Shown piece after piece: positions 4,153-62,785 of a stretch of 64,000 bases of DNA. The stretch's first letter is position 1. Every line of letters begins with the position of its first letter. The DNA is from a bacterium. GTDB lineage: Bacteria; Patescibacteriota; Minisyncoccia; JACQLN01. The notes beneath the pieces are model-generated. The model searched no databases. It saw only the letters and a list, made by a program, of their open reading frames with translations, and was not told the DNA's origin. The stretch lies in assembly GCA_030697795.1 (NCBI GenBank), contig JAUYOV010000006.1:21722-85721 (forward strand), read 5' to 3'. The position numbers and the translations under genes are program-made.

Positions 4153-4178
4153 CCCTACTTCGCTAAAGCTACGCAGGG
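4153..4178. repeat. family C hairpin element, copy C1 (ccctac-ttcgctaaagctac-gcaggg)
   Basis: Intergenic, downstream of ychF. Same loop sequence as the copies at 15395 and 43866. Confidence 0.7.
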
Positions 4179-4196
4179 CAGGCATTTCCACCTTTT

Positions 4197-8773: not shown

Positions 8774-8876
8774 ATATTAAATTACTAATTTCTAATATCC
8801 AATTTCTAATAAAAACCTAAATGTCTAAATGATTTAATCTTAATTAGACTTTTAAGCATTAGATATTTTATTAGTG

Positions 8877-19434: not shown

Positions 19435-19484
19435 GTTCCAAAATTGCGAAATTTCTAATATCTAATTACTAATTTCTAAAAAAT

Positions 19485-21137: not shown

Positions 21138-21272
21138 ACAAACTCTAAGCACTAAATACTAAATTCTAAACAAATCTCAAATCTTAATTTTCCAAAAAGT
21201 TTAAAATTTGTGATTTAAATATTGTTTAGGATTTAGATATTAGAATTTAGAGTTTACTGATATAATAAACAC

Positions 21273-32000: not shown

Positions 32001-32301
32001 CACAACAACCACTACTACTTCTTCTACTTCATCAACCACTTCCTGCGCTGGTACACCAGTGTCCTGTACTAATGAAACCCAATGTTGGGGCGCCAGCTAT
32101 TATTGGTATGACGGCAGTTGCCATAGTTCGCCCCAATCCACCAGTACGACAATTTCCACTTCATCCACATCTTGCCCCAGCGGACAATACTGGAGTGGTT
32201 CGGCTTGTGTGAATTCAACACCGTCAGCTTCGGCTTACAATCAAATGAGAGATCAGTTAAAATCTATGGAAATTATTTTACGGGGCTTATTGGGAAGATA
32301 A
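29095..32301 (+). CDS. large secreted Cys-rich surface protein with peptidoglycan-binding (PG_binding_1-like) domain and internal repeats
   Basis: Signal peptide, coiled coil, SRGEDVRQLQEFLAQD...GYYG..TEAAVKRWQ, two about 90-aa repeats (SCSQYG.GWHTMGSDGNCFDTYMTNYRTANGTLYSCTATPT), C-terminal tail QMRDQLKSMEIILRGLLGR. Confidence 0.6.
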   Translation: MKKSIIVSLLISLTLVLSAQAQTSSSPTSIEDLQKQIQLLLSQMSSLQKEITTLKSSTSNVAVPVAPTTSSIAPPPNISLPFVRPTSPFTSPEIDESEVTGTETEFIPPPILTRSLLRGSRGEDVRQLQEFLAQDPTIYPEGFTSGYYGIGTEAAVKRWQAKNGVPAVGIVGRQTIAKFKTFVATYSPLRPTVPVGPLPFPSYCPVYAYMPTCKEDQSPKDANGCQVCQQKLITDPIKPVICPALATVDSCPAGEERIVTYKSTQCGVYYACKPREISRADNTIATLKKISSIQTDNRFTVNLYDPEGVQKFAIYNSKGAEIHLGYPACKKEWSSPVISADSAEFPLKLLLADCASSQYSTILSTSVVTKPIVEGLTFPYTFANGKVVSSSNEARSYCYANGPSSGQSVAAECETKFGVIYTSVTPVTSDRAVYLSDAFSSCMSRSGFLADAKQIKTWAQSSEPIPWSVLTSASQNTVQACEREYYGQSTVETGSAMCTDGKDNDGDGFIDAADSSCGSTYIVTPPTGQKEQIWNSLGLKSWIKSDADSARITQLKSVCASVPNSSNIWTSNAGNYSSADFGMPDTSKCQRASSCTAGQYFDGAACVTTASTSTGLVENSYGLCSDSIDNDRDGLIDSADSSCAGFTSSTSTYACSDGRDNDSDGLIDYPSDTGCYAKEDTSEDVPTTTTSCSQYGSGWHTMGSDGNCFDTYMTNYRTANGTLYSCTATPTTGCSGTTTTTTGSTCDSSLTALLGTGCHFMYNDSSGKQVFCDNSMTKSAKQGDTATTAGCSSYTTTTTSNWPTDQTSCSSQGYNWCTTTGSSSGWCQSSVCPSSSSTSSATCTSGQYWNGTACVTNTTTTTSTGSCSQYGDGWHTMGSDGNCFDTYMTNYRTANGTLYSCTATPTSGCSSTSTSSTASSCPNSRLTELLGSGCHFMYSTPTGNIYCDGPMTKSAREGDATTTSSCQAPTTTTTTSSTSSTTSCAGTPVSCTNETQCWGASYYWYDGSCHSSPQSTSTTISTSSTSCPSGQYWSGSACVNSTPSASAYNQMRDQLKSMEIILRGLLGR

Positions 32302-32318: not shown

Positions 32319-34523
32319 ATGTCGTTCAAAAAAGTTTTTCTTAAAGTGTCTAAAGTATCTATTGTCCTTACCTTAGTGACGCTAGGCGGTTTTGCTTGTG
32401 CCGATATCGCTCTTGCGCAGAAAGTTGATCAAACTGCGCTCATAATCCAACTCCAAAAACAGATCCAACAACTCTTGAATCAAATCCAAACTCTCCAAAA
32501 AGAAGTTACAGAATTAAAAACTGAAACTGGAGTCGAGACAATTCCACTAGTGACTGCACCAGTAGGCGAGTCAGACGAAACAATTGAGTTACCCGAACTG
32601 ACTCGATCATTATCACTAGGCTCTCGAGGCGATGACGTTAAAAAACTTCAAGAATTTTTGGCGCGCGACAAAGAAATCTATCCCGAAGGCTTAGCCACAG
32701 GATTCTACGGGCCTAAAACTGTAGAGGCAATTAAACGCTGGCAAAGAAAAAACAATGTTGAGGTAGTAGGAAACGTAGGGCCAAAAACCATTGCTAAGTT
32801 TAGAGAACTAGGGCAGGGAGTAGTCCAAGGTTTGATTCAACAAGGCACGCCCTTGGGTATGATTCCGCCTGGTTTATTAACTGCACCTGGGATACAAAGA
32901 CAAATGGCCACCTCGACAAGCTCGGGACAAGCCACCTCCACTATTCCGATTATGCCTTATGCAACTATGACTCCGCCGACTTTGCCACAGGCAACTACCA
33001 CACCTGCTGTACCAGCGGTACCGGCTGTGCCGGCTATACCCGGTATTACCAGTGCAGTTCCGGCAACCCCAGCCACTCCGGCTCAGCCCGCTTCTACATC
33101 AACCAGTGCCAGTAACGAACTAAAAGTTATTTATCCTAATGGTGGTGAGACTTGGTATAAAGGCAACTCCTACACAATCACTTGGCAGAATCCGTTGGCC
33201 GCCAGGTTCACCGGCCAAGAAAAATATTACTGGAATATACTCTTAAAACGAGGTAACAATTCTTGGCAAGCCAATGATACCCCTGTGCCAGTAACCCAAT
33301 CTTCGTATGTTTGGTCTAAGTGGACTGGCTGGGCTGAACCAATTCCTAATGCCAGCGACTTTAAGGTGGGTGTTTCTTTGGTTGATACCTGTGCCGCACA
33401 AGTTGGCGGCATCTGCCCTTCGGCTAATATTTCTATAATTCCTGCCGGCGGCATTGATTACAGCGATAACTATTTTACAGCTACGTCAACACCGCCAACA
33501 ACCACGATTACTGATAGGACAGCGCCAACTATTTCTTCGGTCGTGGCAACCAGCATCACTTCCACCTCGGCAATTATTACCTGGATTACCGATGAACCGT
33601 CCGATTCGCAGATAGAATATGGTTTGAATAACCTTTTTGGAAATTTATCGGCGCTTGATACATCACTAACAACCAATCATTCCGTAACTTTAACTGGTCT
33701 AAACTCAAATACTACTTACTACTATCGGGTTAAATCTAAAGATATAGACGGATATTTTGCCTCAATGACTAATTATACTTTTATTACCCTTGCGGCCAGC
33801 GGTAGCTCATCCACTGCAACATGCTCGAATTTAACACTTGGATTCTCAAATAATAAAACCACATACGTGCTCGGTGAGAATGGTTATGTGACATACAGTT
33901 GCCCTTCAACTGTTTATGTGTGCATGAGAATAATCAACCCCGCTGGAGTTATAACAAACATCGGCTGTCACACTGCAACGTCCGGTATCGACGGTTTTGG
34001 TGGTCTTTCCTCGGTGGGAAACTACACCGCTCGCGCATGCTATGGTGCTACAGGTACTACAGATTGTCCAACAATCGCTGCATCTCTATCATTTACGGTC
34101 ATTGCGTCTGCCTCCAACGCCGACACCACACCGCCGGTGATTTCTTCAGTAAGCACAATGGATCCGGCCGCTAACAGTGCCACTATTGTTTGGTTTACCA
34201 ATGAAGCATCGGATTCGCAGGTGGAATACGGTTTGACAACTTCTTATGGAAATTCAACAACAGTCACTACCACTCTGAAAACTGAACACTCTATAGGTTT
34301 AACAGGTTTAACTCCAGCCAGTACCTACCATTACCGAGTTAAATCCAAAGACGGAGCTGGAAATCTTACAACAAGCAACGACTATACTTTTATTACCCTC
34401 ACAACTGCGGCCGCACCAACGCCATCAACCGCATCCACCACGCCTTCGGCCTCGGTCTACAGTCAAATGAGCGATCAGCTAAAATCTATGGAAATTATTT
34501 TGCGAGGTTTGTTGGGTAGATAG
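32319..34523 (+). CDS. large secreted surface protein with PG-binding domain and two fibronectin-III-like modules; paralogous end modules to the upstream gene
   Basis: Same leader/coiled-coil/PG-binding module, two FN3-like units (...SDSQIEYGL...YYYRVKSKD), identical C-terminal tail ..QMSDQLKSMEIILRGLLGR. Confidence 0.6.
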   Translation: MSFKKVFLKVSKVSIVLTLVTLGGFACADIALAQKVDQTALIIQLQKQIQQLLNQIQTLQKEVTELKTETGVETIPLVTAPVGESDETIELPELTRSLSLGSRGDDVKKLQEFLARDKEIYPEGLATGFYGPKTVEAIKRWQRKNNVEVVGNVGPKTIAKFRELGQGVVQGLIQQGTPLGMIPPGLLTAPGIQRQMATSTSSGQATSTIPIMPYATMTPPTLPQATTTPAVPAVPAVPAIPGITSAVPATPATPAQPASTSTSASNELKVIYPNGGETWYKGNSYTITWQNPLAARFTGQEKYYWNILLKRGNNSWQANDTPVPVTQSSYVWSKWTGWAEPIPNASDFKVGVSLVDTCAAQVGGICPSANISIIPAGGIDYSDNYFTATSTPPTTTITDRTAPTISSVVATSITSTSAIITWITDEPSDSQIEYGLNNLFGNLSALDTSLTTNHSVTLTGLNSNTTYYYRVKSKDIDGYFASMTNYTFITLAASGSSSTATCSNLTLGFSNNKTTYVLGENGYVTYSCPSTVYVCMRIINPAGVITNIGCHTATSGIDGFGGLSSVGNYTARACYGATGTTDCPTIAASLSFTVIASASNADTTPPVISSVSTMDPAANSATIVWFTNEASDSQVEYGLTTSYGNSTTVTTTLKTEHSIGLTGLTPASTYHYRVKSKDGAGNLTTSNDYTFITLTTAAAPTPSTASTTPSASVYSQMSDQLKSMEIILRGLLGR

Positions 34524-35919: not shown

Positions 35920-37227
35920 TTATAGATAATCCAACGGGTTTAAAGTTTTCCCATAGTTATAACTTATACGTAACTCCCCCGTCTTGGGATCTTTATAAGT
36001 GAAAAACTCCGTGAACACAGAAAAGTGTAAATGGGGTCCAGTAACATTACCGCTAGCGCCTTCATAACCTAAAATATCCCCAACAGAAACTTCATCACCC
36101 ACAGATTGGCTAGAGATTTTAGACATATGAGAATATAAAGTTACCAAGCCTCCGGGGTGTTGAATTGCAATCCAATTGCCCCAATAGCCATTGCAAGAAG
36201 GCTTAATATAGTTTTGGCAGGATTCTAATCCTTTAGCAACAATTTTGCCTCCGGCTGCAGCTTTTATGGGGCTGGCTAAGCCAGCAGTTATATCTATGCC
36301 GTTATGTCCTTGACCGCCATAAGCACCCCGCCTAGCATATCTGGTTAAGCCATAACTTTGAGTAATTTTGGCGTTATCTTCGGGCCAAGCAAATATTTTT
36401 GTGCCGGCTCTAGGTATTGTTTCGGCTTGAAAATAACTGACAAAGTTTTTTTCAACTAAAATTTGTTCTTCTATTTTTGCTAAACGCGATAACAAATCAG
36501 CTTGCTGTTGTTCTACTTGGTTTAACAATTGTTGATATATCTGCTCTTGGCCTTTGGTTACCTTAAGCACTGTATCCTTTCTAGTTTTTTGTTCTTGTTG
36601 GGCAGATTTCTGAACAGATAATTGGGTATTTTTATTTTCCAGTTCTTTTTTATTTTCTTTTAAATTTACTTCTTTATTTTCTAGATTATTTTTTAACCGT
36701 CTGGTATCTTTAAGAACATCGTTCATTTTCTTTTGCAAAGAATCTAAATGTTCTGTTTGTTTTACAGCCTCGGTTAGGGTTTTATATTTTAAGGCTCTTT
36801 CTAACAAGCTCTCTTCATCAAACTTGCGAAGCTCTCTTAAGATGCTAGCTAAGACTTCTTGTTTTTCACCGATGCTAAGTTGGGTTTTTTCTATATCTGT
36901 TTGAGTTTCTTTAATATCAAGGCGAGTAATATGAATTTGGTTTTCGGTCTTTTTAATATCCAAATTAAGTTTGCTAATTTGGGTGGTTATAGTGGCTATT
37001 TCGTTTTTTAAAGAAACTACCTCTCCCCTTTTAGAATCCAAGTTTTTTTGGTATTCGGTAATTTTGGCCTCTAGTTCGTCAATATTATTTTGTAAATTAT
37101 CTCTCTCACTTTTCAAGTTATCTAATTGGTCAGCTTCGGCTAAATTAGGCACGGAAATTAATACCAAACAAAAAAAAGCCAAGAAATACTTCAAAATATA
37201 TGTTTTTCTAAACCTCATATTAGCCAT
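35920..37227 (-). CDS. M23 family metallopeptidase with N-terminal coiled coil (EnvC/LytM-like)
   Basis: Signal peptide, long coiled coil, C-terminal M23 motifs (HNGIDI..., GGKIVAKG, HLHFSV). Start uncertain (MANMRFRK). Confidence 0.8.
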   Translation of the reverse strand: MANMRFRKTYILKYFLAFFCLVLISVPNLAEADQLDNLKSERDNLQNNIDELEAKITEYQKNLDSKRGEVVSLKNEIATITTQISKLNLDIKKTENQIHITRLDIKETQTDIEKTQLSIGEKQEVLASILRELRKFDEESLLERALKYKTLTEAVKQTEHLDSLQKKMNDVLKDTRRLKNNLENKEVNLKENKKELENKNTQLSVQKSAQQEQKTRKDTVLKVTKGQEQIYQQLLNQVEQQQADLLSRLAKIEEQILVEKNFVSYFQAETIPRAGTKIFAWPEDNAKITQSYGLTRYARRGAYGGQGHNGIDITAGLASPIKAAAGGKIVAKGLESCQNYIKPSCNGYWGNWIAIQHPGGLVTLYSHMSKISSQSVGDEVSVGDILGYEGASGNVTGPHLHFSVFTEFFTYKDPKTGELRISYNYGKTLNPLDYL

Positions 37228-37616
37228 TTTAACATAAATGATTCCCTCCCGCAGTTTCTGCGGGACTTCTTGGAAATAAAAAAAGTGCGTGTTTTTGTTG
37301 ACCACGCACTTGCTGTTTTTATAGGGTTAAGTATTCTTACCATCCTTTTTCTTCTAAGTTTTGAAGAATTTTGTTTTCAGATACACAGTATAGCAACATC
37401 GAACATATGCTGTATATGAAAAGTCCGTTCATTATTATTTTTTCGCTGATTTCTACAGCAAGGCAAAACATTGATGCAACTATTCCCATAGCCAGTATTA
37501 GGTATGAAATGCAAAGCCTAACTATGAATTTTCTTCCAAATTCAATGGTTATCATATTTACCCCTTTCTATTAAGGAACTTAATTGTGCACGTCTGACAT
37601 ATAATTGCAAATTTTA

Positions 37617-38909
37617 CTATATTTTGTCAATAGCTAGTTTTATTCTTCTTACAGACTCTTTTTTACCCAGTACATCTAAAATTTCAAAAGGGCTTGGAGA
37701 TTTGGCGAGTCCGGAGAGCGCTACTCTTAAAGGCCACAATAGGTCGCCTCGGCCGATGTCGTTGGCTTTAGGCATAAGTTCGGTGGTGGTGGTGTCTATA
37801 TCGAACGAATTTTCGGGCATATTTTCTAATATAGCTAAAACTGTCTCTAAATTTTCTTTAGTTTTTTCTTTTGGCGATTCTTTCCAGTTTAATAAGTCTG
37901 TTTCATAAACTGGTAAAGCAAATATAAAACCTGCCAGTTCTTTTATTTCGGAAAATATATTCAATCTATCTCTAAATAAGTGAGCTACTTTTATAAGCTG
38001 GGCCTCGTTTGGGTCATACATATCTAAATACGGTGCTATAAATTTAGCAATTTCCGCCGGCACCATATTTTTTATATAGTGATTATTTATAGAATCTAGT
38101 TTTTTATTATCAAAAACAGCACCTGATATTTGGACTCTAGAAATATCGAATTCTTTTATTAAATCGTCTAAGTTAAATATCTCTCTATTGTCTTTGGGAT
38201 GCCAGCCAATTAAAGCTAAAAAGTTAAGCATTGCCTCTGGCAAATAGCCTAGCTTAGTAAACTCGTTTACAGAAACAGCGCCGTGACGTTTGGAAAGCTT
38301 AGAACGATCAGTCGCCAATATTAAAGGTAGGTGGGCATACCTAGGCCTTTTAAACTCAAGCGCTTCAATTAGCTCAACTTGTTTATGGGTATTTGATGTG
38401 TGGTCTTGTCCCCTAATAACATCGGTAATATCCATTTCATGGTCGTCAACAACAACAGCAAAATTATAAGCAGGATTGCCATCGGATTTTATAAGCACTA
38501 TATTTTCTGGATCGCTGGATTTAAAGCCTATTGATGCTCTTAGAACTTCGTCTTTAAATATAATTTCTTTATATGCGGGTATCGTAAAAATTATAGCCAC
38601 ACCCTTTTCGCTTTCTACTTTTTGAGCTTTACCAGAGTTCACTAATTTATCTGCGTATTTTTTATATATTTCGATGCGTTCACTCTGCCTAACAATTCCC
38701 CCGTCCCAATTTAAACCCAGCCACTCTAGGCCGTTTGTAATATCTACTTCGTATTCGGGCTTGGATCTTGCTATGTCTGTATCTTCTATGCGCAATAAAA
38801 ATTCACCATGATTTTGTTTGGCGAATAAATAATTAAAAAGCGCGGTACGAGCCGTACCAACGTGCATATAGCCGGTGGGGCTGGGAGCAATACGGGTTTT
38901 CACTTTCAT
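37617..38909 (-). CDS. gltX: glutamate--tRNA ligase
   Basis: RIAPSPTGYMHVGTARTALFNYLFA (HIGH-class) and KLSKRHG (KMSKS). Confidence 0.9.
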   Translation of the reverse strand: MKVKTRIAPSPTGYMHVGTARTALFNYLFAKQNHGEFLLRIEDTDIARSKPEYEVDITNGLEWLGLNWDGGIVRQSERIEIYKKYADKLVNSGKAQKVESEKGVAIIFTIPAYKEIIFKDEVLRASIGFKSSDPENIVLIKSDGNPAYNFAVVVDDHEMDITDVIRGQDHTSNTHKQVELIEALEFKRPRYAHLPLILATDRSKLSKRHGAVSVNEFTKLGYLPEAMLNFLALIGWHPKDNREIFNLDDLIKEFDISRVQISGAVFDNKKLDSINNHYIKNMVPAEIAKFIAPYLDMYDPNEAQLIKVAHLFRDRLNIFSEIKELAGFIFALPVYETDLLNWKESPKEKTKENLETVLAILENMPENSFDIDTTTTELMPKANDIGRGDLLWPLRVALSGLAKSPSPFEILDVLGKKESVRRIKLAIDKI

Positions 38910-38993
38910 AAATTTCTAATGTCTAATATCTAATTTCTAATCAAACTATTAATATCTAATGACTAAGTTTAGAAATTAGTAATTAGAAATTGG

Positions 38994-40106
38994 TCATTTG
39001 GCCAAATCCAAAAGGATTTGTGCCAGCTGGCTGGCTGCATCTATTTTAGCAAATTTTTTGGCATTTTCACTCATTGAATCTAACTCCGAACTGTTATTTA
39101 ATATTTTTTCAATTACTTCCTTTAGCTTGTCCAGTTCATTTTCTTTTAAAACAACAGCAGCCCCAGTTTTGGCATAAGAAGACGCATTGACCGGTTGATC
39201 TCCGTTTTTTCTTTCTAAGGGAATTAAAATGCTTGGTTTACCAAAAGCCGCCAGTTCAAAAATTGTTCCAGCACCGGCTCGACCAATGGCAATGTCGCAT
39301 AATGTATAAGCAGAAGCCAACTCTTTTTCGTTTAAAAATGGTACGATCTTTAAATTATTGTCCAACACCAGGTGTTGGACAGATTGATAATTAGCCGCGC
39401 CCACGCTCCAAATCATATTAAAATTTTCTAATAGATCAGGCAGTATTTTAAAAATAGCTTTATTTATTCTCTGTGCGCCTTGCGATCCCCCGCTAATAAA
39501 TATCGTACACCGAGCATACGATCGTAAGCTCGGTGTACTTTCCTTTGGTGGAAAATCAAGAATTTTTTCGGCTTCTTCTTTGGTTAAATCCAGATACTTT
39601 AATCTGACCGGATTACCTACTACCTGAATATTTTTGCCCGCGAAAAAATTCTTAGTTTCTTCAAAAGATACGACAATATTATTGGTTACATAAGAAAGGA
39701 ATTTATTAGCAAGCCCCGGTATTGCGTCGGACTCATGTATGATTATTTTCTTAAATAAAATTTCGGCAGCTAATACAGGTAAAACACTACCATAACTGCC
39801 CTTGCCCAAAACCACATCTGGATTTATCGAAACTACTATTATTAAAGATTGAAAAAATGCAAAAGGAATTTTAATAATTTCCCAAATATGTTTAAACGAA
39901 AAATATCGCCTTATTTTACCGGCGGCGATTATGGTTTTAACAATTACGCTTTCTTCTCGCAAGGCGTTTAGCGAAAATTCTTCTGGACCAACAAAATATA
40001 TTTTTGCCTCTGGCGCTAGTTTTTTGATGGCTCTAGCTACGGCTACCAAGGGTAAAACATGCCCACCAGTTCCCCCACCACAGAGCATTATCTTAGGGTT
40101 TTTCAT
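38994..40106 (-). CDS. murG: undecaprenyldiphospho-muramoylpentapeptide beta-N-acetylglucosaminyltransferase MurG
   Basis: MLCGGGTGGHVLPLVAVA, the ..ISGGSQGA.. G-loop. Carries an in-frame family A palindrome. Confidence 0.85.
   Translation of the reverse strand: MKNPKIMLCGGGTGGHVLPLVAVARAIKKLAPEAKIYFVGPEEFSLNALREESVIVKTIIAAGKIRRYFSFKHIWEIIKIPFAFFQSLIIVVSINPDVVLGKGSYGSVLPVLAAEILFKKIIIHESDAIPGLANKFLSYVTNNIVVSFEETKNFFAGKNIQVVGNPVRLKYLDLTKEEAEKILDFPPKESTPSLRSYARCTIFISGGSQGAQRINKAIFKILPDLLENFNMIWSVGAANYQSVQHLVLDNNLKIVPFLNEKELASAYTLCDIAIGRAGAGTIFELAAFGKPSILIPLERKNGDQPVNASSYAKTGAAVVLKENELDKLKEVIEKILNNSSELDSMSENAKKFAKIDAASQLAQILLDLAK
39505..39538. repeat. family A palindromic element, copy A3, in-frame inside murG (encodes STPSLRSYARCT just before the GGS G-loop)
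   Basis: gtacaccGAGCATACGATCGTAaGCTCggtgtac, one mismatch. Arms identical to A1. Confidence 0.85.
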
Positions 40107-40142: not shown

Positions 40143-40167
40143 CAGGCAACCGATTGCCGGTTGCCTG
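40143..40167 (-). terminator. rho-independent terminator
   Basis: caggcaaccg-attgc-cggttgcctg with an A-run upstream on plus (a T-run on minus). Confidence 0.6.
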
Positions 40168-40174
40168 ATAGATT

Positions 40175-40885
40175 CTAAGTTCTTGCATAACTCCTTGTTG
40201 CTAGCACTTTGGCTTTATCTCTTGGCGAAAACATTCCAAATAGGGCATAAGCCAATTGATCAAGGATTATTTTCCCTATCGGAGTTAGTTCAAATCCTGG
40301 ATCAGCGAAGTCTATTTTTTTTACAGTTTCTAGAAGTATAGTCTCAACTTCATTTCTCCGGCATGTGACTTGCCACTTATCATTTACTTCCCACCTTACA
40401 TATGCTTTTACAACTTCTGAAATAGTAGCTTCATATCCTTCTTCAGCCATTCTTATCGCAGCTTTTGCTGGACCAGATTGGCAAATAATTGCAGACAGTA
40501 TAGCGTAAGAAAAAGCTTGGCGAAACTCATGCTTTGATTGCCAGCCTGCGTCTATCAAAGCATTTGCCCTGAACAATCCAAGCACAGAACCTGCAAAAGA
40601 TTGAGCTGTGCCCAAGCCATTTCTAAAAATTTCGTCACTGAGCATTTCAACCCAGCTATAACCCCAAGTCGGTCTTAATGAAAGAGCAGTCACAATTTTG
40701 GCAGTTGCTTCTGGATTCAGATTTCCTAAACAGAATTGCAGTACTATATATTGTTGATCGCGAGCTTGCTCTTTGTTTTGGCTCAACGGATCATATGCGA
40801 TCAGTTGTTCAAATACAGCCATTAGGTCTTGGCGTGTATCATTTCCAAACAAGATTACCCCTAGTTTCTTTGTAATAGCATCCAT
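40175..40885 (-). CDS. hypothetical protein inserted within the dcw cluster (GC about 43-46%)
   Basis: No recognisable motif. Adjacent to palindrome A4. Confidence 0.45.
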   Translation of the reverse strand: MDAITKKLGVILFGNDTRQDLMAVFEQLIAYDPLSQNKEQARDQQYIVLQFCLGNLNPEATAKIVTALSLRPTWGYSWVEMLSDEIFRNGLGTAQSFAGSVLGLFRANALIDAGWQSKHEFRQAFSYAILSAIICQSGPAKAAIRMAEEGYEATISEVVKAYVRWEVNDKWQVTCRRNEVETILLETVKKIDFADPGFELTPIGKIILDQLAYALFGMFSPRDKAKVLATRSYART

Positions 40886-41007
40886 AACACCCTCCTCTCG
40901 AAGGTTTATTCCCTCTCGGGAATATGTGTCTCCTCTCGGAGACGGTTTATGTAAAGGAACTTATAGCGAAATACTAACCGATAATCATTAATTTCGTCAA
41001 GCACAAA

Positions 41008-41043
41008 CATACCGCGAGCATACGATCGTATGCTCGCGGTATG
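41008..41043. repeat. family A palindromic element, copy A4
   Basis: cataccgcGAGCATACGATCGTATGCTCgcggtatg, a perfect 36-bp palindrome. Confidence 0.85.
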
Positions 41044-41152
41044 CAGACAAAATAGATATAAATTTCTTTAATAATGCAATGGTCACTAAAAAATGCTATA
41101 GCATAAATTGTTGACCGTAGATATTTTGCCAGTTCCTTACTTTGAGTTACTA

Positions 41153-42244
41153 TTATTTATTTTTAGCCACATTAGCCACCATACCCACGGCGGCGAGTTC
41201 TATCATTAAAGCGGTGCCGCCATAGCTTATAAAAGGCAAAGGGATGCCTGTAAAAGGTATCATACCTAAAATGCCAAGTGTGTTAATAAAAGCTTGTGTG
41301 CCTAGCCAAGCTACTACGCCTATAACCAAATAGCGTGAAAATAGATCTCTAGCCAGAGAGGCTATTTTGAGCCCGCTCAAAATCCAAATTAAAAAAGTTA
41401 GTAAAACCAATACAGCACCAATAAAACCAAGCTCTTCCGAGACCACGGCAAAAACCGAATCGCCTATGGTTTCTGGCAAGTAGTTATATTTTTGAATACC
41501 TTTGCCTAAGCCTAAGCCCACGAATTCTCCAGAACCTATGGCTATTAAGGCTTGTTTTAATTGATAACCCGAACCGGCGGTGTCTTTATTTGGGTTAAGA
41601 AATGAAGTGAATCTTTCTCTACGATAGGGTTCTATAGCAATTAAAGAAAAAAGTAAAATAATTCCAGTTAAAAAAACTAAACCCATAGTTTTTAAATCAG
41701 CTCCGGCCATAAAATACATTATAAAAGCCGTAGCGCAGATTATTATAAACGTGCCCATATCTGGTTCCAAAATTATTAACCCCCCGATAATTCCTGTCCA
41801 CAACAGAAAAGGAAAAATCATAATGGGTTTTTTAATTTTATCTTTTTTTGATTCTAGCCAGTGAGCTAAATATATAACTAAAGCCAGTTTGGCAAATTCA
41901 GAAGGTTGAAAGGAAAAACCAAACACACTTAGCCAGCGTTGAGCGCCTAAGGCGCCCAAGCCTATTTTAGGTACAAAAACTAAACCCAACAAAATTATAG
42001 CAAAAATCAGCAGGGGCAAGCCCAGTTTTTTTAGTAGGGCTATGTCGATTCTATAAAAAATAAAAAAAGCCAAAAGCCCTAGGCCTAGGCCATATATTAT
42101 TTGGTGTTTAAAATAGTAAAAACTTTCGCCGTGATTGGATTGAGATAGCGGTATAGAGGCATTGGTCATTACGGCTATACCCAGCAAAACCAAAACAGCA
42201 GTAGCCATTATAAACATTGTGGCCGCTTTACTATGGTTTTTCAT
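41153..42244 (-). CDS. ftsW: SEDS-family peptidoglycan glycosyltransferase FtsW/RodA
   Basis: 10 TM with conserved C-terminal ...GIPLPFISYGGTA.... Confidence 0.85.
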   Translation of the reverse strand: MKNHSKAATMFIMATAVLVLLGIAVMTNASIPLSQSNHGESFYYFKHQIIYGLGLGLLAFFIFYRIDIALLKKLGLPLLIFAIILLGLVFVPKIGLGALGAQRWLSVFGFSFQPSEFAKLALVIYLAHWLESKKDKIKKPIMIFPFLLWTGIIGGLIILEPDMGTFIIICATAFIMYFMAGADLKTMGLVFLTGIILLFSLIAIEPYRRERFTSFLNPNKDTAGSGYQLKQALIAIGSGEFVGLGLGKGIQKYNYLPETIGDSVFAVVSEELGFIGAVLVLLTFLIWILSGLKIASLARDLFSRYLVIGVVAWLGTQAFINTLGILGMIPFTGIPLPFISYGGTALMIELAAVGMVANVAKNK

Positions 42245-43836
42245 TTTTTAAAACCTCTTTTTAGGACTTGGCCCGCTAGAGTTCCGGAAAAACCAGATTC
42301 ACCTACTGCAATTTTTCCGTTTACCAAAACGTTTTTAATCCCCGAAGGATATTTTAAAGGATTTTCAAATGTCGAGTTATCTTTAATGTTTACTGGGTCA
42401 AAAATAACTATATCGGCAAAAAAATTTTTGGCTATAACTCCCCTATTTTTTAGACCCAACCATTCGGCTGGCTTAGCCGACATTTTATATACGGCTTCTT
42501 CTAGGCTTAAAACTTTTCTTTCTTTGACGTAACGCTCCAAAATTTTAGCAGTGGTGCCAAAAGAACGTGGATGTGGTACGGCGTTTCTTGGTTTAACTTC
42601 GTTATTGTAACCCGAACCGTCCGAAGCAATGATGCTGGCGGGGTGTTTTAACAAAATTTCAAAAACAGTTTCATCTATATCGTTCCAAAATACAGTAACT
42701 TGATCACGAGCGGCCAACAATAAATTTAATATAGCTTCGGCGCCAGAAATGTTTTGATCGCGCGCGACTTGAGCCAGGCTTTTACCCACAAAAAGCTGGC
42801 CCAGAGCACTCGTCGCTATGGTTATTTTTTCGTAAGGATAGTTTTTGTTTTCAATATCACGGACTATTTTTTCGTGTGTGCCGCTATTTTTTATTTTTTT
42901 AATAAGTTCATTTTTACCGCCAACGATAGCCCATTCTGGAAGCAAGAGATAAAGAATAATGGCTGAAGCTGTATAGGGGTAAACATCAAAACTTAAATTT
43001 GCGCCACTTTTTGAAGCTACATCAAACATTCGCAATAGTTTTTCGGCGGCAGCTATGTTTTTCTCGCCCAACATTTTTAAATGGCTAATCTTGGTTTTAA
43101 CTGGTGCATGGTGTAAAAAACCCAAAACCTCGTTTAAGGAGGCATAAACTTCAGCGCCCTCGTTTCTTAAATGAAAAGATGCTACTCCGTTAGAAAATTT
43201 AGTTGTGTTAAGGAGCTTAATAATTTCTTCTTCGCTGGCTAGCCTTTCGTGACTATAAGCCAACCCAACAGAAAACCCATATGAACCCTCGGCTAAAGAT
43301 CTTTTTAAAAGGGTATTAACCTGCATTTCTTCTTTAGGTGTTAAAGGCCTAACTGAATCGCCTACAAAATCTCTGCGCAAGGTGGCGTGTCCGGTAAGTG
43401 TGGCTACGTTAAGGCTAATTTTTCTTTTGGAAAGTGTATCTAAAAACTCGGCCATGCTAGACCAATTTATATTTGTCCCAGAGGTGCTGGCCCATTTTTG
43501 AACCGACACTAAAGAACCCTTAAGCAAAGGCGCTAGAGATGAGCCACACTGACCCATCAGGATTGTAGTTATACCCTGACGGACCATACTTTCTAAGACA
43601 TTGTCGTTTAAAATACTGCCGTAACTATCGGAATGGTTTTGAACATCAACAAATCCGGGAGACACCACCATACCTGAAGCGTTTATTTCTGTCTGGGCTT
43701 TAGCTTTAGCCAGATTTCCAATTTCAAAAATTTTATCGCCCACAATACCAACGTCGGCTTTAAAAGCAGGGCGTTTGCCCGTACCATCAACCACAGAACC
43801 ATTTTTTATGAGAATATCAAAAGCCATTTGAAACAA
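42241..43836 (-). CDS. D-aminoacylase-family amidohydrolase (N-acyl-D-amino-acid deacylase-like)
   Basis: IKNGSVVDGTG...DVGI.GDKI..IG...INASGMVVSPGFVDVQNHSD and C-terminal ...HPRSFGTTAKIL...LSLEEAVYKMSAKPAEWLGL. 4-nt overlap with ftsW. Confidence 0.75.
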   Translation of the reverse strand: MFQMAFDILIKNGSVVDGTGKRPAFKADVGIVGDKIFEIGNLAKAKAQTEINASGMVVSPGFVDVQNHSDSYGSILNDNVLESMVRQGITTILMGQCGSSLAPLLKGSLVSVQKWASTSGTNINWSSMAEFLDTLSKRKISLNVATLTGHATLRRDFVGDSVRPLTPKEEMQVNTLLKRSLAEGSYGFSVGLAYSHERLASEEEIIKLLNTTKFSNGVASFHLRNEGAEVYASLNEVLGFLHHAPVKTKISHLKMLGEKNIAAAEKLLRMFDVASKSGANLSFDVYPYTASAIILYLLLPEWAIVGGKNELIKKIKNSGTHEKIVRDIENKNYPYEKITIATSALGQLFVGKSLAQVARDQNISGAEAILNLLLAARDQVTVFWNDIDETVFEILLKHPASIIASDGSGYNNEVKPRNAVPHPRSFGTTAKILERYVKERKVLSLEEAVYKMSAKPAEWLGLKNRGVIAKNFFADIVIFDPVNIKDNSTFENPLKYPSGIKNVLVNGKIAVGESGFSGTLAGQVLKRGFKK

Positions 43837-43865
43837 GCTCGAAATTCAAATATCTAAATCCTAAA

Positions 43866-43891
43866 CCCTACTTCGCTAAAGCTTCGTAGGG
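43866..43891. repeat. family C hairpin, copy C3 (ccctac-ttcgctaaagcttc-gtaggg)
   Basis: Intergenic between mraY and the aminoacylase. Confidence 0.7.
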
Positions 43892-43990
43892 CACAGCAAT
43901 ATCATGCATTTGAATTTGCTTGCCCGCCGTAGTTTTAACAGAGGCGGGTTTCGGATTTCGAATTTCGTGCTTCGAATTTATTTTAGCATA

Positions 43991-45037
43991 CTACTTACCT
44001 ATCAGTTGTATGATAATACCAAGGGCGGCCATAACAGCTGAAATTATCCAAAATCTTTCCGTAACTTTGGTTTCGGGCCAGCCTTTGGCTTGAAAGTGAT
44101 GATGAATTGGGGCCGAAAGAAAAACTTTTTTACCTTTACGGAATTTTTTACTTATAACTTGAATAATAACCGAAGCCGATTCCACCATAGGCACAAAAGC
44201 TATAAGAGGCAAAACTAAAGTCGCATTGGTTAGTAAGGCAATAACTGCCAAAGTTACGCCCAGCGGCATAGCGCCGGTATCGCCCATAAAAAATCTGGCT
44301 GGGTGGATATTAAACCATAAGAAAGAAAGCAGGGCGCCCACCACCACTGCACAAAAAACACTAAGTTCGTATTTGCCTTCAAAAAAAGCTATTAAGCCAT
44401 AGCTGGCAAAGGCCGTTAGCATCAAGCCTCCAGCCAAGCCGTCTAGGCCATCGGATTCATTAACCGAAAAAGATGTAGCCACGATAATAAAAACAGCAAA
44501 AGGTATGTACCAACTTCCTATATCAAAGTTCCCTAAAAATGGAACCTTAACCGTTGTCCAATCTAATTTGAAATAAAACCATAACGCCCCTATTACAGCT
44601 ACTACTGTGTAAAGAACTAAACGATGCCGCATTTTTAACCCACCACCCTTTGGACCTATTTTAAAAACCCCAAGCAGGTCGTCGCCTAAACCTATAATGG
44701 CCGAAAAAATCATAATGCCTATCGGTAAAAGCGTTTGAGGCCGAGATAAAAAACTAAGGCTAGAAGCCAAGCTGTTGGGCATAAATTCTTTTAATAAGGC
44801 TAGCCCCGCGGTAAGAATTAATATTGTTAACCAAATAATAACCCCGCCCATAGTGGGCGTACCTTCTTTATCTTTATGCATAGCAGCAAAAACTGGCGCG
44901 CCTTCGGTGCGTATTTGCTTGCCTAAGCGGTATTTATATAAAATATTTGTCCACCATGGAGTTAAAACCATAGCCACAGCAAAAGCTCCAAAGGCTAAAG
45001 CTAAAATTCTGGCGACTTGAAATGAAACATCTAGCAT
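43991..45037 (-). CDS. mraY: phospho-N-acetylmuramoyl-pentapeptide transferase MraY
   Basis: Polytopic. DDxxG-like ..GLGDDLLGV.., NESDGLDGLAGG. Confidence 0.9.
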   Translation of the reverse strand: MLDVSFQVARILALAFGAFAVAMVLTPWWTNILYKYRLGKQIRTEGAPVFAAMHKDKEGTPTMGGVIIWLTILILTAGLALLKEFMPNSLASSLSFLSRPQTLLPIGIMIFSAIIGLGDDLLGVFKIGPKGGGLKMRHRLVLYTVVAVIGALWFYFKLDWTTVKVPFLGNFDIGSWYIPFAVFIIVATSFSVNESDGLDGLAGGLMLTAFASYGLIAFFEGKYELSVFCAVVVGALLSFLWFNIHPARFFMGDTGAMPLGVTLAVIALLTNATLVLPLIAFVPMVESASVIIQVISKKFRKGKKVFLSAPIHHHFQAKGWPETKVTERFWIISAVMAALGIIIQLIGK

Positions 45038-45039
45038 AG

Positions 45040-46038
45040 TTAGGTTTGCGTATTAATAGCTGGCCAAGACCAAGCTGTTTCTACCCAGTTTATTAATTTT
45101 CTTATTTGATTAAACTTGTCGTTAGAACCCAGCACTAAATATATAGTTTCGGTATTATTTAAACTCGTGGTCAGTAAAACCATATTGCCTAGGGCTCTAT
45201 TGGTAAAACCGGTTTTTCCACCTATAACGTTGGTGTATTCGCTTAGAAAAGGATTAGTTGATTTAAAATTATGAATAGCTACTTCGTTTAAAGATTGAGT
45301 GTTATAACTTGGCATTTTTAAAATATCCCAAACTAAAGTATATTTAGGATTTTCCCTTAGGTATTTTATAAATTTTGAAAAATCGCTAGCTGTACTAAAA
45401 GAATTTATATCTTCTAGGCCGGTGGGGTCTGTAAAATTAGAGTGTAGTAAGCCTAAGTCGTTAAATTTTAGGTTCATCATTCTTACAAATTCTCTAACGG
45501 GCGTGGCTTTGGCTTCGGGGTTGGTTTGCAGTTTTGAACCAACATGTTCGGCTAAAGCATAAGCCGCATCATTGGAAGATTCTAAAAGAGCAGCAGCTAG
45601 TAAATCTTTCATGGTAAGAATCTCCCCTTCTTTTAAATTACCGCTGTTACCCTCATTTTTAATGGCTCTAGCCGAAATAGACATTGTTTCTTGCGGGCTA
45701 GCATAATCTAAAACCAGGGCCACAGTCACAAGTTTGGTGAGTGAAGCTATAGGGCGAGGTTCATCTATATTTTTGGAATAATAATAAAAATCTTCTTTAA
45801 AATCCCAAGCTAACACAGCCACTGCCTCTGTTTCTATTTCCGGAATTTCAATATTTTTTTGAGGCAGAATTTTTACTTTTACCAGCGGGGTAGATTTTTT
45901 CTTGATATTTGAATTTAAAGCGGGAGTGTTAAAATAAGCGCTGGCCGCCATATATTTAGGCGTGCCAACTTGGTAAGACAAAAGCAACGTAGGAATAATA
46001 ACGAACGCACCAATTAAGATATATAAAATTTGTCGCAT
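45040..46038 (-). CDS. serine-type D-Ala-D-Ala carboxypeptidase (PBP5/6-like, S11)
   Basis: SxxK (ASLTKLVT), SxN (ESSNDAA), KTG (GGKTGFT). Confidence 0.8.
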   Translation of the reverse strand: MRQILYILIGAFVIIPTLLLSYQVGTPKYMAASAYFNTPALNSNIKKKSTPLVKVKILPQKNIEIPEIETEAVAVLAWDFKEDFYYYSKNIDEPRPIASLTKLVTVALVLDYASPQETMSISARAIKNEGNSGNLKEGEILTMKDLLAAALLESSNDAAYALAEHVGSKLQTNPEAKATPVREFVRMMNLKFNDLGLLHSNFTDPTGLEDINSFSTASDFSKFIKYLRENPKYTLVWDILKMPSYNTQSLNEVAIHNFKSTNPFLSEYTNVIGGKTGFTNRALGNMVLLTTSLNNTETIYLVLGSNDKFNQIRKLINWVETAWSWPAINTQT

Positions 46039-46583
46039 TAGTTTTGAAGTAGCTTTTCTGTTTTAAGTGTTTCAGCCTTTAATTCGTTATATTTTGGCAG
46101 TTCGTGTTCTTGGGCTAAACCTAATTTTTTTAAAGCGCCCAAAGATATTTGGTAAGTTTGGGGTTTTGCTGAATCGTTTTTATCTACTAAGCCTCTTAAT
46201 GTTAAATTACGCAAAGCATAAGCCGAATTTACACCCCTTAACACTTCTACCTCGCTTTTAGAAACTGGGCCTCTATAAGCCACCACAGCTAAAACTTCTA
46301 AACTGGCGGGTGTTAATTCTTCTTGTATCTCGCTTTTCACAAGCTTTTCTATATATTCTGATGCTTCTTTTCCCGAAACCAATTGCCATTTATCCTCTTT
46401 GTTTATAAGTTTGATGCCCCTGTTTTCTAGGTTAGTTTTTAAATTTTCTAAAGCTAAAACTACATTGTTACTAGAGGCCGAAGTTACTTCAGCTAATTTT
46501 TTTACGCTTATACTTTCGCCATAAGCAAAAAGAAGGCTTTCTAAAACTTGCTCTAAATTAATCAAATTTACTGGTTTAGCCAT
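46038..46583 (-). CDS. scpB: segregation and condensation protein B
   Basis: LESLLFAYGESISVKKLAEV... with two winged-helix repeats. Confidence 0.8.
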   Translation of the reverse strand: MAKPVNLINLEQVLESLLFAYGESISVKKLAEVTSASSNNVVLALENLKTNLENRGIKLINKEDKWQLVSGKEASEYIEKLVKSEIQEELTPASLEVLAVVAYRGPVSKSEVEVLRGVNSAYALRNLTLRGLVDKNDSAKPQTYQISLGALKKLGLAQEHELPKYNELKAETLKTEKLLQN

Positions 46584-47269
46584 CGCAATTTTATATCTTC
46601 AAAATTAGAATTTTGTTGGGCGGTAATTTTTAAACTCTTTAACAATTCTAACACACAAAGAAATGTTATTAACTTAACTTCTGGGTTAGCGGTATCGGCA
46701 ATTTGAGAAAAATTTAGTTCTAGTTTTTCTTTAATATCTTTTTCTAGATCCGCTGTTTTTTCTGCCAAGGAAACTTTTTCTATAAGCTGGGCTTGAGGAA
46801 TTCTTTGGGGCAAAGTAATTGTGCTTATTAAGCTTGTTAAAGAATCAGACAAAGCTTCACCTGTTAATTTTTTAGGAAAATAAAAAACAGGTTCCATTTT
46901 AGCCAAATAAGCTCGGTTATAATATCTACTGCCTTTTATATCCAACTTATGAATCTCTTTAGCTAGTTCTTTAAGTTTTTGATATTCGGCCAGTTGGTCT
47001 TTTAAACTTTGAATATCTTTTTCTTCTTCTGCGGTCAGCTTCAAAAAAGGCAAAAGTGCGCGCGATTTTATTAAAGCCAAACGGCCGGCAATATTTAAAA
47101 AATTGGCCATATCGGCCATAGCCAAGTTAGTAGAGCTTTTTAAATAATCTAAAAATTGACCAGCGACTTCGGCTAAAGATATTTCGGTTATTTCTAATTT
47201 TTTAGATTCTATAAGTTGATGTAATAAATCTAGCGGGCCTTCAAATTTTGCTAGTTTTAGTTGATACAT
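46568..47269 (-). CDS. scpA: segregation and condensation protein A
   Basis: FEGPLDLLHQLIESKKLEITEISLAEVAGQFLDYL. Confidence 0.8.
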   Translation of the reverse strand: MYQLKLAKFEGPLDLLHQLIESKKLEITEISLAEVAGQFLDYLKSSTNLAMADMANFLNIAGRLALIKSRALLPFLKLTAEEEKDIQSLKDQLAEYQKLKELAKEIHKLDIKGSRYYNRAYLAKMEPVFYFPKKLTGEALSDSLTSLISTITLPQRIPQAQLIEKVSLAEKTADLEKDIKEKLELNFSQIADTANPEVKLITFLCVLELLKSLKITAQQNSNFEDIKLRWLNQ

Positions 47270-50130: not shown

Positions 50131-51567
50131 TTACTTTTTCTCGATTACTTTGATTCCCAATTCCTTTAACTGCTTTTCCGAAATTTCCGCAGGTGCATCC
50201 ATCATTAAATCCCGGCCGTCGCCTGTTTTTGGAAACGAAAACACTTCACGAATGTTTGGCTCACCCGTAAGCAAAGTAACCAATCTATCTAACCCCCAAG
50301 CAATACCGCCATGAGGCGGTGTACCGTAACCTAGAGCTGTAAGCATATGCCCAAAGTTAGAAGAAATTTTTTCTTCTGAAAAACCCATAATTTCAAAAAC
50401 TTTCTTTAGCAGTTCTGGTTTATGGTTACGAATACTGCCACCGCCGATTTCGAAACCATTTAAAGCTATATCGTATTGCGTGGTTAAAATTTTATCTATA
50501 TTTTCTTTATTCATTAGCCATTCTATATGTTCATCTTTTGGTTTAGAAAACGGATTATGTGTAAACGTCCACTTCTTCGCTCCTTCGGAGCTTCGAAGTG
50601 CAGGCACTTTCTTATCCTCTTTAATTTCTTCAAAAAAAGGAAAGTCAACCACCCAACAAAAAGCTAACAGATCTTTATCATTTTTATTTTTTCTTAAGTC
50701 CGGTCGGTCGGTGCCATATTTTTCCATAGCTTCGGCGTAACTGACTCTGGGGAAAGGAGTTTCTTGTATTTTTTTATTTGGAAAGAGTTCTTTTATCAAG
50801 TTAGTCAGTAAAGATTCATTTAGGGCCATAACATCTTCTCTTTCCACAAAAGACATTTCTAAATCCAGCTGGGTAAATTCTGGTTGTCTGTCTCCCCTAG
50901 TGTCTTCGTCTCTGAAACATCTGGCAATTTGAAAATACCTTTCGAACCCCGCCACCATTAAAAGTTGTTTATATTGTTGCGGACTTTGAGGTAAGGCATA
51001 AAACTTGCCGTTTTGTAAGCGCGAAGGTACCACATAATCGCGGGCGCCTTCGGGAGTCGATTTAGTTAAAATAGGAGTTTCTATTTCTACAAATTCTTTT
51101 TTAGCAAGCCAGTTTCTAATAAATTGAATTATCTGGAAACGCGTGCAAATATTTTTTTGAAGCCTATCTCGGCGCAAATCTAGATAACGATATTTCATTC
51201 GTGTGTCCTCCCCTATTTCTAAACCGTCTGTATCCAAAGCAAAAGGCGGAGTTAGGCTCTCATTTAAAATTTTAAGCGCAGTAACTTGAAGTTCTACCTC
51301 GCCTGTAGGAATTTCCGAATTTATCATACCCTTGGGGCGTTCGGAAACTTGGCCTTCCAATTGCACCACAAAGCCCGTACGCAGGCTATCACCCAGTTTA
51401 TGTAGTTCAGTATTATTTGGCAAAAAGACGCATTGTAAGACGCCAGTTCTATCTTTAACGTCTATAAAGATAAGCTTGCCGTGGTCGCGCCTGCCCCAAA
51501 TCCAGCCGTAAACACTAACACTTTGCCCCTTGTTTTCAGGGGTTTTAGATATCAAAATCCGTTGCAT
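50131..51567 (-). CDS. aspS: aspartate--tRNA ligase (short, 478 aa)
   Basis: Class II motifs FRDEDTRGDRQPEFTQLD, GGSIRNH, GLDRLVTLL. Carries an in-frame GC-rich hairpin insertion coding PALRSSEGAK (50570-50600). Confidence 0.9.
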   Translation of the reverse strand: MQRILISKTPENKGQSVSVYGWIWGRRDHGKLIFIDVKDRTGVLQCVFLPNNTELHKLGDSLRTGFVVQLEGQVSERPKGMINSEIPTGEVELQVTALKILNESLTPPFALDTDGLEIGEDTRMKYRYLDLRRDRLQKNICTRFQIIQFIRNWLAKKEFVEIETPILTKSTPEGARDYVVPSRLQNGKFYALPQSPQQYKQLLMVAGFERYFQIARCFRDEDTRGDRQPEFTQLDLEMSFVEREDVMALNESLLTNLIKELFPNKKIQETPFPRVSYAEAMEKYGTDRPDLRKNKNDKDLLAFCWVVDFPFFEEIKEDKKVPALRSSEGAKKWTFTHNPFSKPKDEHIEWLMNKENIDKILTTQYDIALNGFEIGGGSIRNHKPELLKKVFEIMGFSEEKISSNFGHMLTALGYGTPPHGGIAWGLDRLVTLLTGEPNIREVFSFPKTGDGRDLMMDAPAEISEKQLKELGIKVIEKK

Positions 51568-62766: not shown

Positions 62767-62785
62767 TAGGCTAAATTTTTAATTT

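Follow-up and report, generated by a model that had tools for sequence, protein, structure and literature searches.

In the candidate phyla radiation (CPR), a gene for an amidohydrolase of the D-aminoacylase fold is a conserved and typical extra member of the division and cell wall (dcw) cluster, normally placed between mraY and murD. We examined this gene in a bacterium of the Patescibacteriota (assembly GCA_030697795.1), in a stretch of 64,000 nucleotides (contig JAUYOV010000006.1, positions 21,722 to 85,721), the whole of which is called the window here. AMID is used as a working name for the window's protein and for its family. AMID is best read as an accessory factor that assists the D-Glu step in the synthesis of peptidoglycan precursors. 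On balance, we favor a more specific proposal for the window, namely that AMID is a conserved dcw member, that murD has been removed here and not replaced, and that this AMID is a mononuclear zinc amidohydrolase that would release D-amino acids and thereby feed or police the MurD step.

The open reading frames (ORFs) called in the 64-kb window give the minus-strand order scpA-scpB-S11 carboxypeptidase-mraY-AMID-ftsW-[236-aa ORF]-murG-gltX-M23 (Table 1). ORFs and family matches thus agree with the order from scpA to murG in a first-pass annotation of this DNA, and the 4-nt overlap of the AMID stop with the ftsW start, noted in the same annotation, is confirmed as well. The S11 carboxypeptidase is the conserved upstream neighbor of mraY in CPR clusters, while the syntenic block closes downstream with gltX and M23, which are conserved there and are also found in L003, L005, L087, and L089. 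A MurD profile built from 60 CPR MurD sequences gave zero matches at E ≤ 10 in the window (hmmsearch, all six-frame ORFs of at least 40 aa), and Pfam scans of the window's other large ORFs returned no Mur ligase and no murI (glutamate racemase). The earlier statement that the window lacks Mur ligases is therefore upheld; murC, murE, and murF are likewise absent from the 64 kb.

A scan of GTDB with one genome per species confirmed at least 542 relatives of AMID among the at least 600 matched stretches listed, and the best 80 of these at least 542 relatives were compared. ORFs were called in those 80 loci, in six database loci, and in the window, and neighbors were labeled with phmmer seeds, Pfam, and NCBIfam. 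A gene downstream of AMID was present in 80 loci overall (74 of the 80 genome loci, five of the six database loci, and the window). There, murD follows AMID directly in 60 cases and after one intervening gene in five (i.e., at +1 or +2 in 65 of 80 loci, 81%), ftsW follows directly in ten, and the remaining five have other arrangements. These neighboring murD genes are true equivalogs (TIGR01087, 390–419 bits vs. a cutoff of 212). The gap between AMID and murD has a median of 11 nt and is at most 25 nt in 34 of 57 loci, and the two genes overlap in nine; translational coupling of AMID to murD is frequent. Upstream, mraY lies at −1 in 26 loci, and murI (TIGR00067, 220 bits) flanks the AMID-murD pair in eight. 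The constant companion of AMID is thus murD, followed by mraY and murI. The usual order in relatives is S11-mraY-AMID-murD-ftsW-murG-gltX, and since both genes are present in most relatives, arranged as mraY-AMID-murD-ftsW, AMID is an extra dcw gene upstream of murD. The first-pass annotation had placed the amidohydrolase in the "murD position"; this describes the window locus but not its evolution, considering the 60 loci with murD at +1 and the five with murD at +2. Its suggestion that the link to cell-wall synthesis is lineage-specific has to be abandoned, as AMID spans many CPR groups, and the named ones among the 120 closest database homologues listed (42–90% identity) are all Patescibacteria/CPR.

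The AMID-murD adjacency holds in three genomic settings and down to about 37% AMID identity. The first is the dcw block, (scpA-scpB)-S11-mraY-AMID-murD-ftsW-murG-gltX-M23 (e.g., L014, L053, L025, L058, and L062), which is the block of the window plus murD. The second is a glycolysis block in Moranbacteria-like genomes, GAPDH-(350-aa protein)-AMID-murD, with murA and mreB nearby. In the third, the order is murI-AMID-murD or AMID-murD-murI. AMID and murD thus stay paired when both leave the dcw block, and across the CPR AMID is flanked by dcw genes or by murD. Thirteen of the 80 genome loci carry record titles from outside the CPR (Bdellovibrionales, Micavibrio, and Zixiibacteriota; L012, L013, L026, L028, L030, L042, L045, L047, L050, L056, L065, L067, and L083). 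The AMIDs of all 13 nest among those of CPR-labeled records, and most of the Bdellovibrionales-titled loci show the GAPDH-AMID-murD order of Moraniibacteriota loci; we regard these non-CPR taxon labels as doubtful.

In a few loci, the gene that intervenes between AMID and murD encodes another peptidoglycan-peptide hydrolase; it belongs to the PgeF/YfiH family (PF02578) in three loci (L041, 9674–10426; L043, 9626–10363; L052, 8136–8876) and encodes an NlpC/P60 plus BON protein in one (L072, 9711–10610). The protein of about 350 aa directly upstream of AMID (L048, 6928–7980; also in L026, L032, L035, L042, L045, L047, L050, L055, L067, and L071) belongs to a family with no Pfam or NCBIfam match. 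It is specific to a clade of AMIDs that have lost the metal site (pattern NHSYHN, see below) and could be a further partner of AMID. In three loci, the murD ORF adjoining AMID measures 815–860 aa against the usual ~460 aa (L009, 9580–12024; L031, 6680–9193; L068, 9673–12252), and L006 has an ORF for a LAGLIDADG endonuclease (15494–16129) some 2.5 kb downstream of murD. The probable explanation is inteins or homing endonucleases within CPR murD or close to it.

The murD-less order mraY-AMID-ftsW-murG-gltX-M23 of the window is common to L001 (88% AMID identity), L087 (66%), L003 (65%), L088 (51%), and L007 (48%), so the stretch from mraY to murG is conserved down to the last two of these identities. 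A placement that relatives do not share, named in the first-pass annotation as refuting its reading, is thus not what is observed. The 4-nt overlap between AMID and ftsW recurs in L087, L005, L011, and L084. In an approximate neighbor-joining tree of 198 AMIDs, loci with ftsW directly after AMID occur at about five places, nested among murD-bearing ones (L073, L084, L034, the window clade, and L005/L011). This nesting suggests that murD was cleanly excised more than once from its place between AMID and ftsW, rather than that AMID landed in an empty murD slot. Three versions of the block thus exist, i.e., with both genes (L014 and L053), with AMID only (the window, L003, L005, L087, and L088), and with murD only. 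The latter, S11-mraY-murD-ftsW-murG-gltX-M23 without AMID, is found in Portnoybacteria (L089–L091, e.g., GCA_022709865.1, JAKLIA010000002.1) and is the mirror image of the window arrangement. L008 is the murD-bearing locus closest to the AMIDs of L005/L011 (57% identity), and a search with its murD gave no match on any contig of an AMID-only locus. Relocation of murD to elsewhere in the window's genome is the sensible default, because murC, murE, and murF are equally absent and yet must exist to supply the substrate of mraY, murG, and ftsW.

The protein itself is clearly related to D-aminoacylases, as the first-pass annotation had proposed. Its length of 531 aa given there applies to the TTG start at 43836. 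The ATG nine bases on, at 43827, is the likelier start and gives 528 aa, since the resulting N-terminus MAFDILIKNG matches those of all homologues. Against the PDB, the best matches are 1m7j (E 1.6e-68), 3gip (E 1.1e-60), and PpOngB, 9kb1 (E 1.1e-57). The AlphaFold2 model (pLDDT 90, pTM 0.91; 85 homologues) is predicted to combine an N/C-terminal beta-sandwich, a (beta/alpha)8 barrel, and an inserted alpha/beta lid. Its top Foldseek matches are 1m7j, 9kb1, 9g5m, and 3gip (target-normalized TM-scores of 0.89–0.93; 0.92–0.93 for 1m7j, 3gip, and 9kb1), with other amidohydrolases at ~0.6. All curated NCBIfam thresholds were missed (best match NF006560, 165.7 bits vs. a cutoff of 340), and only the general Pfam models Amidohydro_3 and Amidohydro_1 pass. 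Pfam finds none of the N, middle (ATP-binding), and C domains of Mur ligases in AMID. The sequence has no N-terminal hydrophobic segment, signal peptide, or membrane segment, and AMID is thus cytoplasmic.

Residue alignment gives the window's AMID the active-site pattern Q-H-C-H-H-D at 1m7j positions 67/69/96/220/250/366. The beta metal site is retained (Cys96, His220, and His250 of 1m7j, here Cys94, His219, and His249), as is the general base Asp366 (here Asp403), in the motifs GQCG, FHLR, SHLK, and SDG. Not all of the binuclear site anticipated by the first-pass annotation is kept, as the alpha-site HxH is incomplete, with His67 replaced by Gln (QNH) and His69 retained. A dispensable alpha site, where this Gln lies, would fit the title of PDB entry 1v4y, "one-metal activation and second-metal attenuation". 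The carboxylate site is present (Tyr283 in the PYP motif and Arg421 in HPR), and so is the acyl-site Tyr191; R421 and Y191 show essentially no variation among AMIDs. For the Klebsiella, Alcaligenes, and Bordetella enzymes, section 3.5 of PMC12149444 describes a Tyr/Arg pair that holds the free alpha-carboxylate of the substrate, and the role of the acyl-site Tyr. Because the Cys/His/His metal site, the catalytic Asp, and the carboxylate-binding residues are all retained, the AMID of the window is probably an active hydrolase.

The closest characterized relatives are the D-aminoacylase of Alcaligenes faecalis DA1 (1M7J; EC 3.5.1.81) and the Klebsiella D-acylase (9G5M), which have the same three-part fold (TM-score 0.89–0.92, ~29% identity). 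AMID shares with them the Cys/His/His beta site, the Asp base, the Tyr (PYP)/Arg carboxylate site, the acyl-site Tyr, and the HxRxE and SHxK motifs. Unlike these enzymes, it has Gln for the first His of HxH in the window, and Asn, Gln, Thr, or Leu in ~77% of AMIDs; it also differs in its longer, unalignable lid, its extra invariant residues, its dcw location, and the many members without the Asp or metal ligands. After the PYP motif, the lid exceeds that of known D-aminoacylases by about 30 residues, and alignments to 1m7j and 3gip, made with the single sequence and with the family profile, stop at this motif and resume ~50 profile positions on. The residue governing side-chain specificity sits in the lid (Leu298 in 1m7j, Arg295 in Bb3285). 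In AMID, the lid and the active-site rim carry residues invariant in this family specifically (K111, W112, W122, R152, H193, Y293, L296, P297, W299, and G304).

The N-acyl-D-glutamate deacylase of Bordetella bronchiseptica, Bb3285 (3GIP/3GIQ; EC 3.5.1.82), belongs to the same subfamily and fold (TM-score 0.92), and its substrate, N-acyl-D-Glu, is the kind of compound on which a partner of MurD and MurI would be expected to act. Its specificity for this substrate is attributed to Arg295, and no link to cell-wall genes is reported, in the available part of PMC12149444. The equivalent of Arg295 in AMID falls in the remodeled lid where the alignment breaks. The GlcNAc1A deacetylase PpOngB (9KB1; TM-score 0.93 to AMID) has the same fold and has shifted to a sugar-acid substrate through changes in its catalytic cavity (PMC12017989), which indicates that the D-aminoacylase fold can be retargeted. 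PpOngB differs from AMID in being a catabolic enzyme of chitin utilization in Proteobacteria, with no dcw context.

Across the family, the catalytic residues are much less constant than the binding residues. The six canonical active-site positions were scored in 198 distinct AMIDs. The fully canonical pattern HHCHHD has 39 members, and the window's type, QHCHHD, has 46. The pattern NHCHHD occurs in 17, NHCHHN, in which the Asp is lost, in 38, and NHSYHN, with Cys->Ser, His->Tyr, and Asp->Asn, in 16; with this last pattern, the known metal site cannot form. Position 67 is Asn in 79 members, Gln in 56, His in 45, Thr in 10, Leu in six, and Ser in two. The general-base Asp is lost in 80 of the 198 (~40%; Asn in 73; Ala, Gly, or Ser in seven), and the beta site is incomplete in 29. 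Parsimony on the approximate tree gives ~11 changes of the Asp state and six losses of the beta site. Degenerate AMIDs also occur at AMID-only loci (L007, QHAHRN; L073, LHCHHS).

These AMIDs nevertheless show no sign of decay. The divergence of AMID relative to that of the adjacent murD is 0.99 in Asp-lost and 0.73 in metal-site-lost members, and 0.91–0.97 in the groups that keep the Asp. Fifteen residues are invariant in all four groups (K111, W112, W122, R151, R152, Y191, H193, E223, K251, Y285, Y293, P297, W299, H419, and R421), and the inactive-looking groups differ from the others at the catalytic positions plus five conservative changes only. A search for a replacement catalytic residue specific to the Asp-lost groups brought up no new acid or base. 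With divergence no faster than that of the essential murD alongside, and with these invariant residues, Asp-lost and metal-site-lost AMIDs do not behave as decaying genes. The pattern indicates that universal selection acts on the ligand-binding apparatus for an N-acylated D-amino acid, and not on the hydrolytic machinery. Consequently, either many CPR lineages use AMID for binding, or catalysis is hidden from sequence. The D-amino-acid processing and cell-wall link put forward in the first-pass annotation thus separates into two parts, i.e., a cell-wall link that is strongly conserved and a processing role that is insecure for the family, ~40% of which lack the catalytic Asp.

For the window, we propose that AMID would work as a mononuclear zinc amidohydrolase that frees a C-terminal D-amino acid from the acyl or peptidyl group on its nitrogen. 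This amino acid would most plausibly be D-Glu, since the fixed partners of AMID are murD and, in some genomes, murI. In a salvage role, L-Ala-D-Glu or N-acyl-D-Glu from scavenged wall fragments would be converted to D-Glu for MurD. Cummings et al. reportedly described L-Xaa-D-Xaa dipeptidase activity in this subfamily in 2009. In an editing role, mis-made UDP-MurNAc-L-Ala-D-Xaa would be hydrolyzed, by analogy with PgeF. Salvage and editing both fit the data. PgeF/YfiH, the working model for editing at position 2, hydrolyzes UDP-MurNAc-peptides in the cytoplasm and takes off Ser or Gly that MurC has added in error; the same source (PMC12280929) describes no enzyme that would edit the MurD step. 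Besides the PgeF-family genes found between AMID and murD in three loci, the likeness is one of role, as PgeF has an unrelated fold (PF02578, Cu-oxidase_4) and edits position 1, while AMID matches amidohydrolase families only.

Several observations weigh against this proposal. Hydrolysis is not the indispensable activity of the family, given that 80 of 198 members lack the Asp and 29 of 198 lack beta-site ligands and yet are as conserved as murD, and it may not be the main role in the window. The murD-only cluster of Portnoybacteria shows that AMID is not universally required at its position. The assignment to D-Glu draws on gene neighborhood only, because the lid with the specificity residue cannot be aligned. 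Besides, murI adjoins AMID in some genomes, where a role purely in D-Glu supply would be redundant. We also entertain, more tentatively, a CPR-wide accessory factor that would recognize the C-terminal D-Glu of the MurD substrate/product pool, with its free alpha-carboxylate and acylated amine, editing or recycling position-2 intermediates where it is catalytic and partnering MurD as a substrate trap where the residues are lost. The catalysis-lost AMIDs (~40% of species) would then serve, for example, in precursor hand-off or sensing.

Because catalytic residues have been lost across the family, a non-catalytic partner that would bind precursors ending in D-Glu has to be taken seriously. AMID could be a binding-only pseudoenzyme in the window as well, acting as a partner, scaffold, or sensor for MurD/MraY with hydrolysis vestigial. 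The repeated loss of the Asp (~11 changes on the tree) and of beta-site ligands, divergence no faster than that of adjacent murD, the 15 binding or family residues invariant in every group, and the near-restriction of differences between inactive and active groups to catalytic positions would all be expected of such a protein. A precedent is offered by the CRMP/dihydropyrimidinase-like proteins, amidohydrolase-superfamily members that have lost catalytic residues and are conserved as binding or scaffold proteins. These are among the fold matches of AMID, but they are eukaryotic, belong to another subfamily (TM-score ~0.6), and have unrelated biology. For the window, however, we consider a purely binding role rather unlikely, as its AMID and the whole clade keep Cys/His/His and Asp, which suggests selection for catalysis there; no AMID-murD fusion occurs among the 240 homologues listed, and Asp->Asn variants could retain residual or rewired activity. 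A different use of the same site would be to epimerize or otherwise modify the terminal Glu of UDP-MurNAc-L-Ala-Glu. To our knowledge, the subfamily of AMID contains no epimerase. The site of AMID is predicted to recognize an N-acyl amino acid with a free carboxylate, and in the MurD2/MurL system of Xanthomonas and others, an accessory protein encoded beside a murD-type ligase likewise targets the C-terminal Glu of this intermediate, although MurL is an ATP-dependent epimerase of a different, unannotated family (PMC8788868). The L-Glu determinants of MurD2, Glu197 and Arg358, correspond to E. coli positions 182 and 348 (PMC8788868). Eight of 60 neighboring murD have Glu at position 182 with Lys at 348, and three have Glu/Arg; the latter are the 815–860-aa ORFs, probably with inteins, in which the alignment is unreliable because of their excess length. 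The canonical D-Glu-type Asp182/Lys348 pair is found in 46 of the 60 and in 118 of 119 database relatives. With neighboring murD mostly canonical and murI adjacent in several genomes, a system of the MurD2/MurL type in CPR is unlikely, and an analogous role for AMID appears quite improbable.

An ordinary catabolic D-aminoacylase carried in the operon as an incidental passenger, with no role in wall synthesis, would agree with the database name and with the compact CPR operons, in which unrelated genes occur together (the same blocks include gltX, aspS, and GAPDH). There is little to be expected from this explanation, since the murD adjacency persists in three settings and at AMID identities as low as ~37%, the pair is kept when both genes leave the dcw block together, start and stop codons overlap with those of murD or ftsW, and a catabolic enzyme without catalytic residues would not stay conserved. 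Functional replacement of MurD, with AMID attaching D-Glu in a genome without murD, is exceedingly improbable. AMID does occupy the exact location of murD in the murD-only cluster, no Mur ligase lies within 64 kb, and the murD search of AMID-only genomes gave no locating match. On the other hand, murC, murE, and murF are also missing from the window and must lie elsewhere, so the absence of murD from 64 kb means little. AMID lacks an ATP-binding or Mur-ligase domain, and in water, amide synthesis is beyond the reach of a metallo-amidohydrolase. In most relatives, the two genes are neighbors, and some AMID-only loci have the degenerate AMIDs described above. Replacement is thus chemically implausible and contradicted by the majority arrangement.

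Table 1. Features of the window (positions are those of the 64,000-nt stretch).
Feature	Position	Strand	Assignment or remark
aspS	50131–51567	minus	First of the cluster genes in transcription order (span 35.9–51.6 kb)
Small ORF and 737-aa trypsin-like/TIG protein	between aspS and scpA	minus	
scpA	46568–47269	minus	PF02616
scpB	46038–46583	minus	PF04079
S11 D-Ala-D-Ala carboxypeptidase	45040–46038	minus	PF00768 at 2.3e-35
mraY	43991–45037	minus	TIGR00445, 213.4 bits vs. cutoff 192
mraY-AMID spacer, 154 nt	43837–43990	minus	Long imperfect hairpin, minimum free energy −55.4 kcal/mol, z −5.6
AMID	42241–43836	minus	Pfam Amidohydro_3 at 6e-20, also Amidohydro_1
ATGA overlap, AMID stop/ftsW start	42241–42244	minus	Read from the sequence; translational coupling
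ftsW (SEDS-family)	41153–42244	minus	TIGR02614, 364.5 bits vs. cutoff 337.5
Hairpin upstream of 236-aa ORF	41007–41044		Strong; GAGCATACGATCGTATGCTC palindrome copy, 17-bp stem, between ftsW and the 236-aa ORF
236-aa ORF between ftsW and murG	40175–40885	minus	No Pfam or NCBIfam match
Hairpin downstream of 236-aa ORF	40143–40167		Terminator-like
murG	38994–40106	minus	TIGR01133, 250.2 bits, marginally under cutoff 250.25; GT28 Pfam PF03033 and PF04101 both present
GAGCATACGATCGTATGCTC palindrome copy in murG	39496–39539		Inside the murG reading frame
gltX	37617–38909	minus	Synteny
M23 peptidase	35920–37305	minus	Pfam
Palindromes with core GAGCATACGATCGTATGCTC	3551, 18905, 39496, 41000, 55773		Near-perfect, ~44 nt each
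D8 palindromic repeats outside the spacer	4133–4180, 15375–15422		Same family as the spacer's inner stem
TTTAGAAATTAGTAATTAGAAATT-type repeats	1099–1130, 2432–2564, 8779–8820, 19442–19483, 21139–21256, 38910–38999, 62773–62814	both	AT-rich
1068-aa PG_binding_1 paralogue	29095–32301		PG_binding_1 domain and internal repeats
734-aa PG_binding_1 paralogue	32319–34523		PG_binding_1 domain and internal repeats
Family-5 solute-binding protein	8970–10712		Oligopeptide/murein-peptide type

The 236-aa ORF has a homologue only in the closest relative, L001, and is absent from L003, L005, L087, and L088. Considering this distribution and the hairpins that bracket it, the ORF looks like a recent insertion into the cluster. 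Its description as a GC-rich hypothetical does not hold, as its GC content of 0.37–0.41 lies within that of its neighbors (0.31–0.43). In the spacer between mraY and AMID, the inner stem of the hairpin, CCCTACTTCGCTAAAGCTTCGTAGGG, belongs to the palindromic repeat family D8; Rfam gave no match over 35–52 kb of the window, this spacer included. Repeats of the AT-rich TTTAGAAATTAGTAATTAGAAATT type fill many intergenic gaps. The two large paralogues that carry a PG_binding_1 domain are adjacent, and their genes have in common an 86-nt stretch with 83% identity at the 3' ends. The family-5 solute-binding protein, next to which no permease genes were noticed, matters here only insofar as it might import wall peptides.

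Few bacterial pathways are charted as well as peptidoglycan precursor synthesis, and few gene orders are as conserved as the dcw cluster. Nothing in the searchable open-access literature ties AMID-type proteins to the dcw cluster, murD, or CPR cell-wall synthesis, and AMID as a dcw cluster member of CPR is apparently undescribed; databases name these proteins "D-aminoacylase" or "amidohydrolase family protein". The first of these labels calls for caution, as hydrolysis of the canonical type is impossible for the AMIDs of many species. After correction, AMID emerges as an accessory dcw gene found CPR-wide, which is built on the scaffold of a D-aminoacylase, is linked to the D-Glu step, and apparently can do without catalysis. 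With an additional, tightly coupled gene at this step throughout a whole radiation, the pathway would gain a component. This might be a second step of proofreading or salvage, next to that of PgeF at position 1, or AMID could instead be an enzyme turned binding partner. Either outcome bears on how D-glutamate is acquired and controlled in the ultra-small, host-dependent cells of the CPR.

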